64,000 bases of DNA. Origin: Candidatus Binatia bacterium. GTDB taxonomy: Bacteria; Desulfobacterota; Binatia; UBA9968; JAJDTQ01. A program made the position numbers and the translations under genes. Shown in pieces: positions 1 through 5,392 of the stretch (its first letter is position 1; the number at the start of each line of letters is the position of its first letter). A model generated the notes under the pieces. That model saw nothing but the letters and a program-made list of their open reading frames with translations, did no database searches and was not told the DNA's origin. The stretch lies in the NCBI GenBank assembly GCA_963666515.2, contig OY762897.2, positions 1,344,001 through 1,408,000 on the forward strand, read 5' to 3'.

Positions 1-862
1 TCTCGTCCATGGCCACGATCTCGCCGTCGATGAGGAAGCGCGACGGTGCGGTCTTGCTCAGCGCGTGGACGATCTCCGGATACCGCCGGGTGATGTCGTC
101 TCCCTTGCGCCCCAGAAGCGTGACGGCATCGTCGCGCCGCCGGGCGAGCACGCGCACGCCGTCGTACTTGATCTCGAAGAGCCAGTCCGCGTCGGAGAAG
201 GGGACGCCGCCGGGCGACGCCAGCATCGGCGCCGGCTTCCGGCGCGACACGGAGGCCGGCGGGGCCTTGAGCCGTTTCAGGGCCTTGTCGAGCACCGCTG
301 TCCGCGAGCCCGGGTCGCCGCGCTCGGACACGGTGAGGCCGGACAGGATGGAGCCGGGAAAGGCCTCCGCCGGCTCGGGCTCCTCCCCGCGGCCGTCCTT
401 GCTGAACAGCAGCCACTCCCTGGCGCGGCCTCCCATACGCACGAGCATCCACACGCCGCGCAGCTTGTAGCCCTGCAGCTCGATCTCCAGCGTGCCCTCG
501 TCGAGCTGCCGCAGCGGGTCCTCGGCGTGGAGCAGCCGGTAGCGGCCCTGGTCCCACAGGATGACCGCGCCGGCGCCGTAGTTGTCCCTGGGGATCACGC
601 CCTCGAAGTCGGCGTACTCGATGGGGTGGTCCTCCACGTGCACCGCCAGCCGTTTTTCGTAGGAGCGGACCGACGGGCCCTTGGGAACGGCCCAGCTCTT
701 GAGGACGCCGCCCATCTCCAGCCGGAGGTCGTAGTGGAGCGCGCGGGCGGCGTGCTGTTGCACCACGAAGAGGCCTCCGGCGGAGGACGCCTGGCCTCCG
801 AACGCTTCCGGGGTCCGCTCGGGATCGCGCTTGCGCCGGTACTCACCCAGCGGGGCGGACAT
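1..862 (-). CDS. ligD: DNA ligase D (NHEJ), N-terminal phosphoesterase domain plus start of ATP-dependent ligase domain; truncated by window edge
   Basis: Not in the ORF track because it runs off the edge. Manual minus-strand translation from ATG at 862 gives MSAPLGEYRRKRDPERTPE...FVVQQHAARALHYDLRLEMGGVLKSWAVPKGPS...RLAVHVEDHPIEYADFEGVIPRDNYGAGAVILWDQG (LigD PE domain), then WLFEIKYDGVR (ligase KxDG motif) and IDGEIV. Divergent from ku. Confidence 0.95.
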   Translation of the reverse strand, partial: MSAPLGEYRRKRDPERTPEAFGGQASSAGGLFVVQQHAARALHYDLRLEMGGVLKSWAVPKGPSVRSYEKRLAVHVEDHPIEYADFEGVIPRDNYGAGAVILWDQGRYRLLHAEDPLRQLDEGTLEIELQGYKLRGVWMLVRMGGRAREWLLFSKDGRGEEPEPAEAFPGSILSGLTVSERGDPGSRTAVLDKALKRLKAPPASVSRRKPAPMLASPGGVPFSDADWLFEIKYDGVRVLARRRDDAVTLLGRKGDDITRRYPEIVHALSKTAPSRFLIDGEIVAMDE

Positions 863-871
863 GGCAACCTG

Positions 872-900
872 TTGACAAGTTCATAACTTGTAGAATTCTA
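872..900. promoter_or_regulatory. Divergent ligD/ku promoter region with perfect 17-bp palindrome (candidate operator)
   Basis: AT-rich 86-bp intergenic region. TTGACA at 872-877 overlaps ACAAGTT-CAT-AACTTGT (875-891); a second palindrome TAGAATTCTA lies at 891-900. Confidence 0.6.
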
Positions 901-948
901 AAGGCATTTCATGCTAGAGTGCAACGGATCGAATCTGGAGGGACCATC

Positions 949-2058
949 ATGGCAGCACGCGCCATCAGTTCCGGGACCATTTCCTTCGGCCTGGTTTCCA
1001 TCCCCATCAAGCTCTACACGGCAGCGTCATCGGGCGGCATCACGTTCAATTTCCTGCACAACCGATGCGGGTCGCGCATGAAGCAGCAACAGTTCTGCCC
1101 CGTGTGCGACGAGGTGGTGCAGCGCTCCGACCTGGTCCGCGGCTACGAGTTCGCCAAGAACCAGTACGTACGTTTCGAGAACGACGAGTTGAAGGCCCTG
1201 GAAGAGGAGACTTCCAAGGTCATCGAGCTGGAGGAGTTCGTGCCGCTGGAGAAGGTCGATCCGGTCTACTTCGAGAAGACCTACTACCTCGGCCCGGACA
1301 AGGGCGGCGAGAAGGCGTACCGGCTGCTGGCGGACGCCATGACCGAGTCCAACCGGGTGGGTCTGGCCAAGTACGTCATGCGGGGCAAGGAGGGGCTCGT
1401 GCTGATCCGCGCGGTCCAGGGCGGTCTCATGCTCCACACCATGTACTACGCCGACGAGGTGCGGGATTTCGACGACATCGACCGGGGCCAGACCATCCAG
1501 CTCAAGGAAGGCGAGCTGGACTTGGCGGTCCGCCTCATCGACGAGCTGGTGAGCAAGGAGTTCCACCCGGAGAACTACCACGACGAGTACAAGGCACGCG
1601 TCCTGCAACTGGTGGAGCAGAAGGTGGAGGGGAAGGAAGTGACGGCCCTGGAGCCGCAGGCGCGCCAGAGCCAGGTGGTGGACCTCATGGAAGCCCTCAA
1701 GGCCAGCCTGGAGAAGCACGACGGCGCGGCCGGGGCGAAGCCCAAGGCCCTGCGCGCTGCCGCGCGCACGCGCAAGGCGCCGGCCGGGGAAGCGGAGGTC
1801 ACCTTCGAGGAATTCCAGGCCGCGGTGAACGAGTCCGGCCTGGAAGTGAGCGCCGCGGAGCTCAAGAAGAGCTACAACGGCCTCGCCTCGCTCGGCAAAC
1901 GCAAGAAGCTGGCCTCGGCCGACGTGCGCGGCAAGGTCGTGAACCTGCGCAAGGATCTGGAAGTGATCCGCTCCGATCCCGAGCTGTTCGGCAACGCGCC
2001 GAAGAAGCTCAAGGCCGCCCGCATCCCCCTCACCGCCCGGGACTGGGAACGCTACTGA
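949..2058 (+). CDS. ku: Ku protein (NHEJ end-binding) with an extra C-terminal domain
   Basis: MAARAISSGTISFGLVSIPIKLY...LVRGYE...IELEEFVP...DPVYFEKTYYL...LHTMYYADEVR...YHDEY...VVDLMEALKASL is the Ku core. GGAGG RBS precedes ATG 949. About 115 aa follow the core. Confidence 0.96.
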   Translation: MAARAISSGTISFGLVSIPIKLYTAASSGGITFNFLHNRCGSRMKQQQFCPVCDEVVQRSDLVRGYEFAKNQYVRFENDELKALEEETSKVIELEEFVPLEKVDPVYFEKTYYLGPDKGGEKAYRLLADAMTESNRVGLAKYVMRGKEGLVLIRAVQGGLMLHTMYYADEVRDFDDIDRGQTIQLKEGELDLAVRLIDELVSKEFHPENYHDEYKARVLQLVEQKVEGKEVTALEPQARQSQVVDLMEALKASLEKHDGAAGAKPKALRAAARTRKAPAGEAEVTFEEFQAAVNESGLEVSAAELKKSYNGLASLGKRKKLASADVRGKVVNLRKDLEVIRSDPELFGNAPKKLKAARIPLTARDWERY

Positions 2059-2086: not shown

Positions 2087-2884
2087 ATGGCACGGGACGC
2101 CACGGACAGGGCGCACCGGGTGATGGAAGAAGCCCGGCGTTTGCTGGATACATGCGGTGTCGAGCGCCCGCCCGTGGACTTGGTGCGCATCGCCCACCAT
2201 CTGGGCATCCGGCGCATCCGGGAGTTGGACGTTCGTCTGGACGGGCAACTCGTGGAACTGGGCGACGGCGGCTACGAGGTCATCCTCAGCCGGAACGCCC
2301 CTCACACCCGCCGGCGCTTCACCCTGGCCCATGAGATCGCTCACATCCTCGCGGCTTCGCCCGGCGACGACTCCATGAGCTGCGGCGACGCCGCCACCGA
2401 GGAGCTGTGCAACCGCGTCGCCGCCGAGCTGTTGATTCCGGGCCGCTTCATTGCCGACGAGGCGCCAGGGGACATGGACGTGGCCGCCTTCCGGCGATTG
2501 GCCACCCGGTTCCAATGCTCCCTCGAAGCGGCGGCTTGGCGCGTCCTCAACATGGGAAAGGTGGCCGGCGCTCTGCTGATCTGGCGCATGCAGGACGGCG
2601 GCAAGCTGGAACTGTCCGCGTCGCCGCGCACCTTCGGCTTCGATTCGCCGTTCGAGAACGGCGCCGTCCTTGATGGCGCCATGCCGTTCGTGCGACAGTT
2701 GATGGCGCGGAGCGAAGGTCCGGTCACCTGCGGTGAGGACCCGGGCGGAAGAATCTACACGGGCGACTATGTCCGCCTGAACAAGGTGTTGCTCATGTAC
2801 CTGAGATCCGAAGGAGATCCCCCGGCCTCGAAGACGAGCCGCCGCCCGTCAGGCGCGCCGGGCCAGGGCGAGTTGTTCTCATAG
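2087..2884 (+). CDS. ImmA/IrrE-family zinc metallopeptidase (COG2856) with HTH and putative GAF-like C-terminal region
   Basis: PPVDL..IA..LGI N-terminus, RRRFTLAHEIAH (HExxH), EELCNRVAAELLIP, LATRFQCSLEAAAWR; ends in QGELFS. Confidence 0.92.
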   Translation: MARDATDRAHRVMEEARRLLDTCGVERPPVDLVRIAHHLGIRRIRELDVRLDGQLVELGDGGYEVILSRNAPHTRRRFTLAHEIAHILAASPGDDSMSCGDAATEELCNRVAAELLIPGRFIADEAPGDMDVAAFRRLATRFQCSLEAAAWRVLNMGKVAGALLIWRMQDGGKLELSASPRTFGFDSPFENGAVLDGAMPFVRQLMARSEGPVTCGEDPGGRIYTGDYVRLNKVLLMYLRSEGDPPASKTSRRPSGAPGQGELFS

Positions 2885-2910: not shown

Positions 2911-3432
2911 ATGGACGTCATGAAAGCATTGGAGACCATCGACCTCGACAAGCTGATGGAGAAGACCGCGGCCGAAGGCAACGGCCGCACGGTGGTGTGG
3001 CAGGACTCGGAGTCCATCGCGTTCCTGAGCAGCGGGCGCAAGCGCCGCATGGACTTTCACGTGGACCCGAGCGACGAGGTGACGCTGGTGCTCAAGGGCG
3101 AGCAGCGCCTTCACTGTCTGACCGATGACGGCAATGAGAAGGTCGTCACCATGGGGCCGGGCCAGATGACCCTGTGCCCGGGCGGTGTGCCACACTCCCC
3201 GCGGGTGGACGAAGGCACCTGGTTCCTGGTGTTCGAGCGGGTGCGCAAGCCGGGCGAGCAGGACCGCTTCATGTGGTTTTGCGAGAACTGCGGCAAGAAG
3301 GTATACGAGGTGGACGTGACCGTGGGCAACTACAGCGACGACCCCGTGGGTCAGGTCCACCGCGAGTTCTACGGCGACGACAAGCTCAGGACCTGCAAGG
3401 ACTGCGGCAGCCTCGTCCCGACGCCGGAATGA
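2911..3432 (+). CDS. 3-hydroxyanthranilate 3,4-dioxygenase-like cupin
   Basis: RMDFHVDPSDE, VPHSPR, FLVFER and the rubredoxin-like Cys pairs WFCENC and RTCKDCG typical of bacterial 3-HAO. Confidence 0.85.
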   Translation: MDVMKALETIDLDKLMEKTAAEGNGRTVVWQDSESIAFLSSGRKRRMDFHVDPSDEVTLVLKGEQRLHCLTDDGNEKVVTMGPGQMTLCPGGVPHSPRVDEGTWFLVFERVRKPGEQDRFMWFCENCGKKVYEVDVTVGNYSDDPVGQVHREFYGDDKLRTCKDCGSLVPTPE

Positions 3433-3451: not shown

Positions 3452-4213
3452 ATGATGGACTACAACCAGGCGCTGGAACGGCTGGCCGAAGGCTATGGCA
3501 AGGCGGAAAGGGACGTCGTCACGGCCTATTTCAGCGCGCCGCGCACACCCGAGGAGCACATCCACTGGCTCAAGGCCCAGGCCTTCAAGGAATACTCGGC
3601 CATCCAGCCGCTGATCCATGCCCTCGACAAGCTCTACTCCCAGCTTGACCGCCAGGTGGACCGCCACGACTTCGAGGAACTCTGTCACAAGCTCGGCGAC
3701 GAGATGAGCCACGCCAGGCTGATCATGGATTTCCTGGAGGAGTTGACCGGCAAGCGGCTGACGCAGAAGGACCTCACCTGGTTGCCGGAGGACCGCAAGC
3801 TCGCCGAGGTGAGGGCGCGCTACTCCCGCAGCTACGCCGGGCTGCTGCACGGCTCCGAGCGCATCACCACCAGTGAGATACAGCGGCGCGACGAGATGCT
3901 GGAGCGGGCCGCCATCACCCTGACCGAGGGCGGCGGGGGCGCGCTCTACGAGGTCTGCCGCCACCTGAAAGGCAACCGCATCAACCGCAGGATCGCGTCC
4001 ATCTTCGGGCGCATCCACCGGGACGAGACCAGGCACAGCGACGCCAACGAGCTGGCCGCGCTGGTCAAGACCCGGAAGGACTACGACCGCGCCCGGCGCA
4101 TCATCGCCAACGTTTCGTCCCAGCGTCTTCGGATGCGCAACGAGCAGTTCGGCTTTCCGCTGAGCCGGAGCGAGCTTCGATCGCTGGAACGGGAGTGCAC
4201 CGCCGCGGCTTAG
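3452..4213 (+). CDS. Ferritin-like (di-iron four-helix bundle) protein
   Basis: Helical protein with two DExxH motifs (DEMSH, DETRH) and upstream Glu residues (KEYSA, TEGGG). Confidence 0.7.
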   Translation: MMDYNQALERLAEGYGKAERDVVTAYFSAPRTPEEHIHWLKAQAFKEYSAIQPLIHALDKLYSQLDRQVDRHDFEELCHKLGDEMSHARLIMDFLEELTGKRLTQKDLTWLPEDRKLAEVRARYSRSYAGLLHGSERITTSEIQRRDEMLERAAITLTEGGGGALYEVCRHLKGNRINRRIASIFGRIHRDETRHSDANELAALVKTRKDYDRARRIIANVSSQRLRMRNEQFGFPLSRSELRSLERECTAAA

Positions 4214-4273
4214 CGGCGCGCAGAGCGGGCCGCACTTGAACGACGGCCCCGGTAAACCAATGAGGAGGTTCCC

Positions 4274-5392
4274 GTGAACACGGACACAATGCCTGTCATC
4301 GACATGGACTCGCACGTCGAGGAACCCAAGGAGGCCTGGGAGCACCTCGACCCGAAATACGCCGACCGGAAGCCCTTTCCGGTGGTGGCTCAGGACTTGC
4401 CGCAACTGGGCGGCATCAACGCCTTCTGGTACATCGACGGCACGGTCTATCCCAAGCCCGTGGGCCGGGGGAACCTGGTGTACGGCACCCCCATCGAGAT
4501 GCGCTTCGCCACCCAGAAGGAGTTCACCATCGGTTCCCAGACCATGACCGACATCCCCGCGCGCCTGAAGGACATGGACGCGGTGGGCATCGACGTCCAG
4601 GTGGTGTTCTCGACGCTGTTCCTCCAGCCGGTGACCGACGACCTCCTGTTCGAGGCCGCGCTGATGCGGAGCTACAACACCTGGATGGCGTCGGCCTGCG
4701 CCGAAAGCCCCGACCGCATGAAGTGGGGCGCCATCCTGCCCATGAGGGACCCGCGGCTGGCCCTCGCCGAGCTGGAACACAGCCTCAAGCTCGGCGCGTC
4801 GGTGGCAGGTATCTACGGCACCGTGGGCGAGACCATGCTGCACGACCGCTACTACGATGACTTCTTCGCCGAGGTGGAGCGCCTCGGCGTGCCCCTGGCG
4901 ATCCATGCCGGCTGGAGCCATCCGGGCATCACCCGCAGCATGGACGACGTCTCGGGTTCCCGCGCCATCGGCTTCACCCTGCCGGTGATGATGGGGTTCT
5001 ACAGCTTCCTGGGCGGCGGCATCCTGGAACGGCACCCGCGTCTCCGGGTCGCGTTCATGGAGATCGGCGTGCAGTGGGTACCCTATCTGGTGCAGCGGAT
5101 CGACCACTACCACCACGCCGACGGCGCCCTGGGCATGCCGCTGCCCGTCAGGCAGCCGGTGTCCGAGACCCTCAAGCAGAGCGACGTCTACTTCACCCCG
5201 GAAGCGGACGAGATCTACCTACCGCAGGTGGCCGAATACCTGGGTGAGGATCGCCTGCTGTTCGAAGGCGACATGCCCCACGCCGAGGCCCGGGAAGGCG
5301 CCAAGCAGGAGATCCTGGAACGGGACGACATCTCGGAAGAGCTCAAGTGGAAGATACTGAGCGTCAACGGCCGGCGGTTCCTCAACCTGTGA
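4274..5392 (+). CDS. Amidohydrolase_2 family metal-dependent hydrolase/decarboxylase
   Basis: IDMDSH, RLKDMDAVGIDVQV, LAIHAG, GGILERHPRLRVAFMEIG, LFEGDMPH; GAGGAGG RBS before the GTG start. Confidence 0.9.
   Translation: MNTDTMPVIDMDSHVEEPKEAWEHLDPKYADRKPFPVVAQDLPQLGGINAFWYIDGTVYPKPVGRGNLVYGTPIEMRFATQKEFTIGSQTMTDIPARLKDMDAVGIDVQVVFSTLFLQPVTDDLLFEAALMRSYNTWMASACAESPDRMKWGAILPMRDPRLALAELEHSLKLGASVAGIYGTVGETMLHDRYYDDFFAEVERLGVPLAIHAGWSHPGITRSMDDVSGSRAIGFTLPVMMGFYSFLGGGILERHPRLRVAFMEIGVQWVPYLVQRIDHYHHADGALGMPLPVRQPVSETLKQSDVYFTPEADEIYLPQVAEYLGEDRLLFEGDMPHAEAREGAKQEILERDDISEELKWKILSVNGRRFLNL

Follow-up and report, generated by a model that had tools for sequence, protein, structure and literature searches.

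Why should a bacterial Ku end in a conserved module of its own, and why should the gene that follows it encode a peptidase of the kind whose usual substrates are repressors? The question is raised by a 64,000-nucleotide stretch of a Candidatus Binatia bacterium genome (assembly GCA_963666515.2, contig OY762897.2, positions 1,344,001 to 1,408,000 of the forward strand; hereafter the window), in which ku is followed on the same strand by a gene for an IrrE/CapP-type M78 metallopeptidase. Bacterial end joining is usually described as the work of two proteins, Ku and LigD, regulated only via expression, and M78 peptidase genes normally lie directly beside the gene of their substrate, which is usually an XRE repressor. 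At this locus it is ku that occupies the usual substrate-gene position relative to the peptidase gene. The best, if unproven, reading of the arrangement, to which we give a probability of about 0.4, is that a peptidase activated by single-stranded DNA (ssDNA) cuts the C-terminal arm of Ku.

That the first gene of the pair encodes a bacterial Ku (P0001) is plain: its core lies above the family cut-offs (Pfam PF02735 at residues 12-191, E = 3e-51, 174.4 bits against a cut-off of 25; TIGR02772 Ku_bact at residues 4-254, E = 1.2e-90, 303.5 bits against 150), the conserved minimal C-terminus is present and ligD is nearby. Columns Q242, D245, L246, M247, A249, L250, S253 and L254 of the minimal C-terminus are invariant in an alignment of 20 sequences, and Ku is the sole Pfam domain of the protein, in which no XRE helix-turn-helix (HTH) domain was matched. 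Beyond the core comes a basic linker that differs in length and sequence among the 20 aligned proteins and then, unlike the linker, a tail that retains invariant positions and ends in the consensus KLKAARIPLTxRDWERY. A first-pass annotation, made by a model from the letters alone, had proposed an extra C-terminal domain of about 88 residues after a Ku core and a basic linker; the TIGR02772 boundary at residue 254 and the conservation of the tail bear this out.

Modelled with AlphaFold2 from a 13-row tail alignment, the tail reaches a mean predicted local distance difference test (pLDDT) score of 80.2 and a predicted template modelling (pTM) score of 0.71, with predicted helices at tail residues 5-13, 21-37 and 42-61 and a confident end (residues 81-88, mean pLDDT 89) that, from these confidence values, would dock on the helical bundle. 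Ahead of that end runs a low-confidence loop, presumably exposed, which we infer from the model to be a candidate cleavage region. The whole of Ku, modelled without an alignment, gave a pLDDT of 38.4, too low for use. With an isoelectric point (pI) of 9.5, and a range of 8.0-11.7 across 13 of 13 tails, the tail is a small, basic, conserved helical module that is predicted to fold and that replaces the usual disordered, Lys-rich extended C-terminus; the earlier suggestion that it is unlike the disordered Lys/Ala/Pro tails of other bacterial Ku proteins thus stands, basic though it is. Its position after the minimal C-terminus and its basic charge are those of the extended C-terminus of the Ku proteins of Bacillus subtilis, Mycobacterium tuberculosis and Pseudomonas aeruginosa, whereas the published extensions are Lys-rich, dissimilar in sequence and treated as flexible, and the tail here is conserved, predicted to be folded and found on other proteins too. 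Roles given for the extended C-terminus in passages of PMC4889933 are DNA binding, limiting of threading and assistance to LigD, and these are likely roles here.

The module is also rare. It matched no family in Pfam, NCBIfam or PADLOC; a phmmer search of 1.84 billion representatives returned 26 proteins at E<=0.001, several of them long repetitive proteins matched over short stretches; and of 401 genomes sampled from the class, 40 matched the tail profile, all within two families of one order. Ku residues 270-369 are matched by 47 proteins at E<=0.01, and 45 of these have the Pfam Ku domain. No relative turned up when viral contigs were scanned for the tail, and the ESM Atlas gave no usable match for it.

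The partner enzyme (P0002, 265 residues) matches Pfam Peptidase_M78 (PF06114) at E = 1.8e-15 (57.2 bits against a cut-off of 22), PADLOC capP at 2.4e-22 as its best profile match, and IrrE in the PDB (3dte) at 6.3e-4. Its HEIAH motif lies at residues 82-86 (window 2330-2344), Cys99 at 2381-2383 and Glu114 at 2426-2428, and H82, E83, H86 and E114 are invariant among 10 orthologues; the zinc-site residues given for Deinococcus deserti IrrE in the available text of PMC12828697 are H82, E83, H86 and E113. Judged by these residues, the peptidase looks catalytically intact and of the damage-sensing type. Profile and PDB matches end at about residue 164 and the last ~100 residues match nothing; at 265 residues the protein is nearer to IrrE and CapP than to ImmA, with 169. 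In the genus and in one locus of another clade (L039), Cys99 stands 13 residues past H86, a spacing compared with the text on CapP only, where the switch cysteine C114 is placed 13 residues past H101 (bioRxiv 10.64898/2026.05.16.725639, in part). A cysteine-switch loop is not universal among CapP proteins. The same genome has a second M78 peptidase, ImmA-sized at 170 residues (L050, G000:C1:88380-91868, positions 1498-2376 on the minus strand), with a canonical 119-residue XRE repressor gene directly upstream and two small genes beside it.

What ties enzyme to tail is their company across genomes. Full-length peptidase orthologues (E<1e-100) occur in 25 of the order's 123 genomes, namely 21 of the genus to which the window belongs (g1, this genome included), three of three of genus g9, and G805; three more genomes of the order have weak or partial matches only. 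Every one of the 25 orthologues directly follows a tail-bearing Ku, a count drawn from related genomes that are not independent; about three clades may account for the pairing. Ku was found in 34 of 61 relatives, tail-bearing in 23 and exclusively tail-less in 11; these last 11 genomes gave zero peptidase matches at E<=1e-10, and in a sample of 400 genomes from elsewhere in the phylum no M78 match was better than weak (E>=1e-9). Genomes flagged as unpublished contribute to the counts in which G780 and G731 figure and to what is said here from L040 and L041. The pair stays intact where its flanks differ, in the downstream genes at L038-L040 and in ligD at L039. In G011, a genome of the same genus that has no Ku, the syntenic site (L173, G011:C1:3477000-3485000, at about 4068-4371) has only a frameshifted peptidase remnant, residues ~156-257, beside the conserved downstream genes; evidently ligD, ku and the front part of the peptidase gene went in a single deletion. 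A metagenome scan with the peptidase profile yielded 80 distant M78 loci (<=41% identity), none with the tail, Ku or LigD and many with an XRE gene upstream, and could neither confirm nor extend the pairing.

A further constraint lies within the tail. Just before the proline of the tail end, 22 distinct Ku tails have L in 95% of cases and K, A, A and R in 100% each, whereas the same LKAAR positions are 22-61% conserved in 18 distinct ends of a non-Ku family that carries the same module; the motif P-L-T-x-R-D-W is common to both groups. The fixation of LKAAR fits an extra requirement acting on those proteins that have the protease beside them. Known sites cut by M78 peptidases pair a hydrophobic residue with arginine, L106-R107 in DdrO (PMC12828697) and F82-R83 in CapH (bioRxiv 10.64898/2026.05.16.725639), according to the parts of these sources available.

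Together these features suggest a mechanism in which the Ku arm would contact DNA and/or LigD, as in other Ku proteins, and ssDNA at damaged or resected ends would activate the peptidase. The enzyme would then cut the arm at one of two places, the linker or the exposed loop that precedes the conserved end (around KK-L/K-AAR), and the cut would alter how Ku holds DNA, how it threads or how it recruits LigD; the peptidase would in this way act directly on a repair protein and not on a repressor. The broader proposition, that bacterial end joining is switched by proteolysis, with Ku as the first non-repressor substrate of the IrrE/CapP family and the tail as a new portable 'cleavable arm', is one that we advance tentatively and at rather worse than even odds. 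A predicted complex of the peptidase with Ku residues 255-369, run with no controls, scored 0.28 against a mark of 0.32 and is evidence neither for nor against contact.

The tail is found on proteins other than Ku, and these bear directly on what it does. It forms the C-terminus of a separate family of proteins of about 185-220 residues (L021-L023, L041, L042 and L174-L187), built from an N-terminal domain (MWSRLYRxHVIMAFPSFDTATN...) that matches no Pfam family, a copy of the Ku minimal C-terminus motif (VIDxxxALKxSL), a linker and the tail; in a tblastn search, Ku residues 212-368 aligned to one member at 35% identity. For another, P0069, the ESM Atlas matches were all to integrase SAM-like domains with scores below 0.8, and they serve as leads only. 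All non-Ku tail proteins with readable context belong to this one family. A receiver-domain protein (P0054, with the tail in the place of the output domain) and a 375-residue protein (P0064) also end in the tail; they are singletons on contigs of 1.5-2.3 kb and are given little weight. The tail is a movable module, and this distribution supports the earlier notion that it was grafted. Genomes G038 and G045 have a protein of the ~200-residue family alongside a tail-less Ku, and the family may mimic or compete with the Ku arm. The contig of L042, publicly titled Candidatus Udaeobacter, is identical to that of L174, whose genome the taxonomy used here assigns to the order of the window; the labels disagree.

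Several observations weigh against cleavage of Ku by its neighbour. The first-pass annotation had named the common occurrence of the tail in genomes lacking the peptidase as a finding that would refute its proposal, and 16 genomes do have the ~200-residue family and no peptidase orthologue; at 19 non-Ku tail loci no peptidase like the one in the window lies within about 5 kb. Both IrrE and CapP, by the available accounts (PMC12828697; bioRxiv 10.64898/2026.05.16.725639), also recognise their substrates by the HTH domain, which Ku lacks. The Cys99 loop is absent from L024, L038 and L040, the g9-type peptidases being without it. The contrast in LKAAR is a post hoc observation, made against a family that is more diverged overall, and the pairing itself could be an operon structure inherited from very few evolutionary events. 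Homology of the tail to the C-terminal domains of DdrO or CapH, known substrates of such enzymes, is undetectable, as set out below.

Because the module occurs without the peptidase, it must have a function of its own. Charge and position, taken with what is published on extended C-termini, make DNA or LigD binding the probable one. The main alternative, which we think quite possible if on balance doubtful, takes this function to be the whole story: the tail would be an accessory DNA- or LigD-binding arm, the bacterial counterpart of the SAP domain of Ku70, and the peptidase would act on an unlinked repressor or other protein and sit in the operon for co-expression. The basic pI of all 13 tails agrees with this, as do the basic character (mean pI 11.4) and the DNA binding reported for extended C-termini (PMC4889933, in part); so does the presence of the module in those 16 peptidase-less genomes, where it travels with VIDxxxALKxSL, the minimal C-terminus motif described in the same partial source as a LigD-binding region. 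The joining of the tail to a receiver domain in P0054 can be added, as can weak matches to the Myb/SANT-like family PF12776 in 5 of the 13 tails (best E 0.0064, all under the 23.6-bit cut-off). The tail resembles the Ku70 SAP domain and the HEH extension of one Streptomyces coelicolor Ku in being small, helical and joined to the C-terminal end of Ku by a flexible linker; it differs in being larger, with three helices and a docked end in the prediction, and SAP, HeH and Rho_N were absent among the Pfam matches at E<=10 for the 13 tails. What an accessory arm leaves unexplained is why the peptidase orthologue occurs only beside a tail-bearing Ku and never in genomes with a tail-less one, why no XRE partner is adjacent, against the usual arrangement, and why LKAAR is fixed in Ku tails only.

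Two further explanations take the comparison with DdrO more literally. Ku might be the repressor of its own locus, a copy of DdrO in function, with the Ku core as dimerisation domain and the tails of the dimer binding a palindrome between ligD and ku until the peptidase removes them and the locus is derepressed. There is indeed a perfect 10-bp palindrome, TAGAATTCTA, at 891-900 inside the conserved intergenic block, which recurs letter for letter at 15 of the 20 loci of the genus, and the tail is basic, helical and found in the output-domain position of a receiver protein. We nevertheless consider this reading improbable: the palindrome was not found in the extracted upstream regions of four loci of other clades despite their conserved tails, no HTH family matched the tail in Pfam scans, and the palindrome, which may be a promoter element or an operator, may just be part of a promoter. 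A sigma-70 scan of the intergenic region found no promoter. An inverted repeat nearby, ACAAGTT-CAT-AACTTGT (875-891), was dropped as an operator candidate, being present in this genome only and not conserved in the genus. Least credible of all, and to our minds highly unlikely, is true homology to the DdrO C-terminal domain, by which the tail would be a much diverged relative inherited with an IrrE-type peptidase. The first-pass annotation had cited DdrO strings, accurately as it turns out, since they match the sequence of D. geothermalis DdrO (6jq1), and had read two tail motifs as DdrO-like. The second of these was recovered: PLTARDWE aligns over 8 columns with PESKRDWY, the best local match to the DdrO C-terminal domain, and a Leu-basic pair precedes the proline by 5-6 residues in the tail as in DdrO, where it is the scissile L106-R107 (PMC12828697, in part). 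The first, LRKDLEVIRSDPELFG, was recovered by no aligner. Our DdrO profile was built from P0073 (130 residues, E = 5.9e-60 to PDB 6jq1), the DdrO of a genuine metagenomic IrrE-DdrO pair (L124, 2729-3860), together with 16 homologues, making 17 sequences. Against the whole family, hhalign gave the tail a probability of 0.64% (E = 0.089), with the match in the HTH region and not in the C-terminal domain; against the C-terminal domain (~73-129) it gave the 8 columns just described at 0.63% (E = 0.092), in one comparison. The global alignment score was 3.9, and the two motifs are spaced differently, by 4 residues in the tail and by 14 in DdrO. BLASTP found no match in the DdrO C-terminal domain, and the tail profile run against all PDB sequences, DdrO and CapH included, reached a best E of 1.1 with no DdrO. 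Fold searches with the tail model (Foldseek and two with VIA-align) gave generic helical matches only, the best being to designed helical repeats (Z 5.7-5.8) and, at Z 5.6, to a DnaD domain, all values within the chance range for helical bundles; no DdrO, CapH, SAP or Myb entry stood among the matches listed, and an absent match does not show that folds differ. At the level of sequence, kinship with DdrO was accordingly rejected, leaving a short motif and, on the cleavage reading, a resemblance in function and position. In L124, the ddrO gene overlaps the start of the peptidase open reading frame (ORF) when the first start codon is used.

The features of the locus are collected in Table 1.

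Table 1. Features of the ligD-ku-peptidase locus and the genes downstream (window coordinates)
Feature	Position	Strand	Remarks
ligD, 5' part (3'-phosphoesterase domain, then start of ligase domain)	2..862	-	Pfam LigD_N 9.8e-42, DNA_ligase_A_M 6.8e-14; divergent from ku; extends beyond window
ligD-ku intergenic region	863..948	.	contains genus-conserved block
ku gene, 369 aa (P0001)	949..2058	+	single ORF; stop codon 2056-2058
Ku core and conserved minimal C-terminus (residues 4-254)	958..1710	+	TIGR02772; VVDLMEALKASL motif at 243-254
Variable basic linker EKHDGAAGAKPKALRAAARTRKAPAGE (residues 255-281)	1711..1791	+	27 residues; net charge +4, pI 10.4
Tail module (Ku residues 282-369, 88 aa)	1792..2055	+	three predicted helices: 1804-1830, 1852-1902, 1915-1974
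Low-confidence loop, tail residues 67-75, GNAPKKLKA	1990..2016	+	pLDDT <50; contains first residues of LKAAR
Conserved C-terminal peptide LKAARIPLTARDWERY (Ku residues 354-369)	2008..2055	+	
IrrE/CapP-type M78 metallopeptidase, 265 aa (P0002)	2087..2884	+	begins 28 bases past ku stop codon
Cupin, 3-hydroxyanthranilate-dioxygenase-like, zinc-ribbon end	2911-3432		
253-aa protein without clear family (orf3452)	3452-4213		
372-aa protein (amidohydrolase gene position)	4274-5392		

ligD and ku are divergent at every same-genus locus (20 of 20) as well as at L024 and L025; at L039 no ligD was found within 6 kb. A scan between ku and the peptidase gene found no terminator-like site, and a Pfam scan of positions 2-2884 found ligD, ku and the peptidase only, with no XRE repressor gene. 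The cupin, orf3452 and amidohydrolase genes downstream keep their synteny at all 12 of the 12 same-genus loci and are absent from L038-L040; as they do not accompany the pair in other clades, they fall outside the system. Nothing at the locus points to a mobile element.

Set among known systems, the pair comes near to several and coincides with none. With IrrE (PprI) and DdrO, whose ssDNA-stimulated cleavage belongs to the DNA-damage response of Deinococcus, it has in common an M78 (COG2856) peptidase whose zinc-site residues agree, in near-identical numbering, and a partner whose helical C-terminal domain is small and closes with a conserved ...P...DW end; the partner here, unlike DdrO, is a Ku without HTH and not an XRE repressor. 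CapP and CapH, of cyclic oligonucleotide-based anti-phage signalling systems (CBASS) and other defence operons, supply the best peptidase profile, a Cys 13 residues past the second zinc His and a same-strand partner gene upstream, whereas this locus has neither a defence operon nor an HTH protein of the CapH type, the last ~100 residues of the peptidase gave no match to a GAF domain and the g9-type enzymes have no Cys loop. ImmA of ICEBs1 is an M78 peptidase too, one that cuts the product of a neighbouring gene, and differs in having no extra C-terminal region and in that its partner, ImmR, is a repressor.

Prokaryotic Ku is described, in passages of PMC11936186 and PMC4889933, as consisting of the core domain only, with one Streptomyces protein as the exception. 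A literature search found no published Ku-protease pair among the titles listed, with subscription journals and survey tables (689 Ku C-terminal lengths) outside its scope. Should the peptidase indeed cut the Ku arm, it would be the first post-translational switch for bacterial Ku, and the substrate range of the IrrE/CapP/ImmA proteases would widen beyond repressors.

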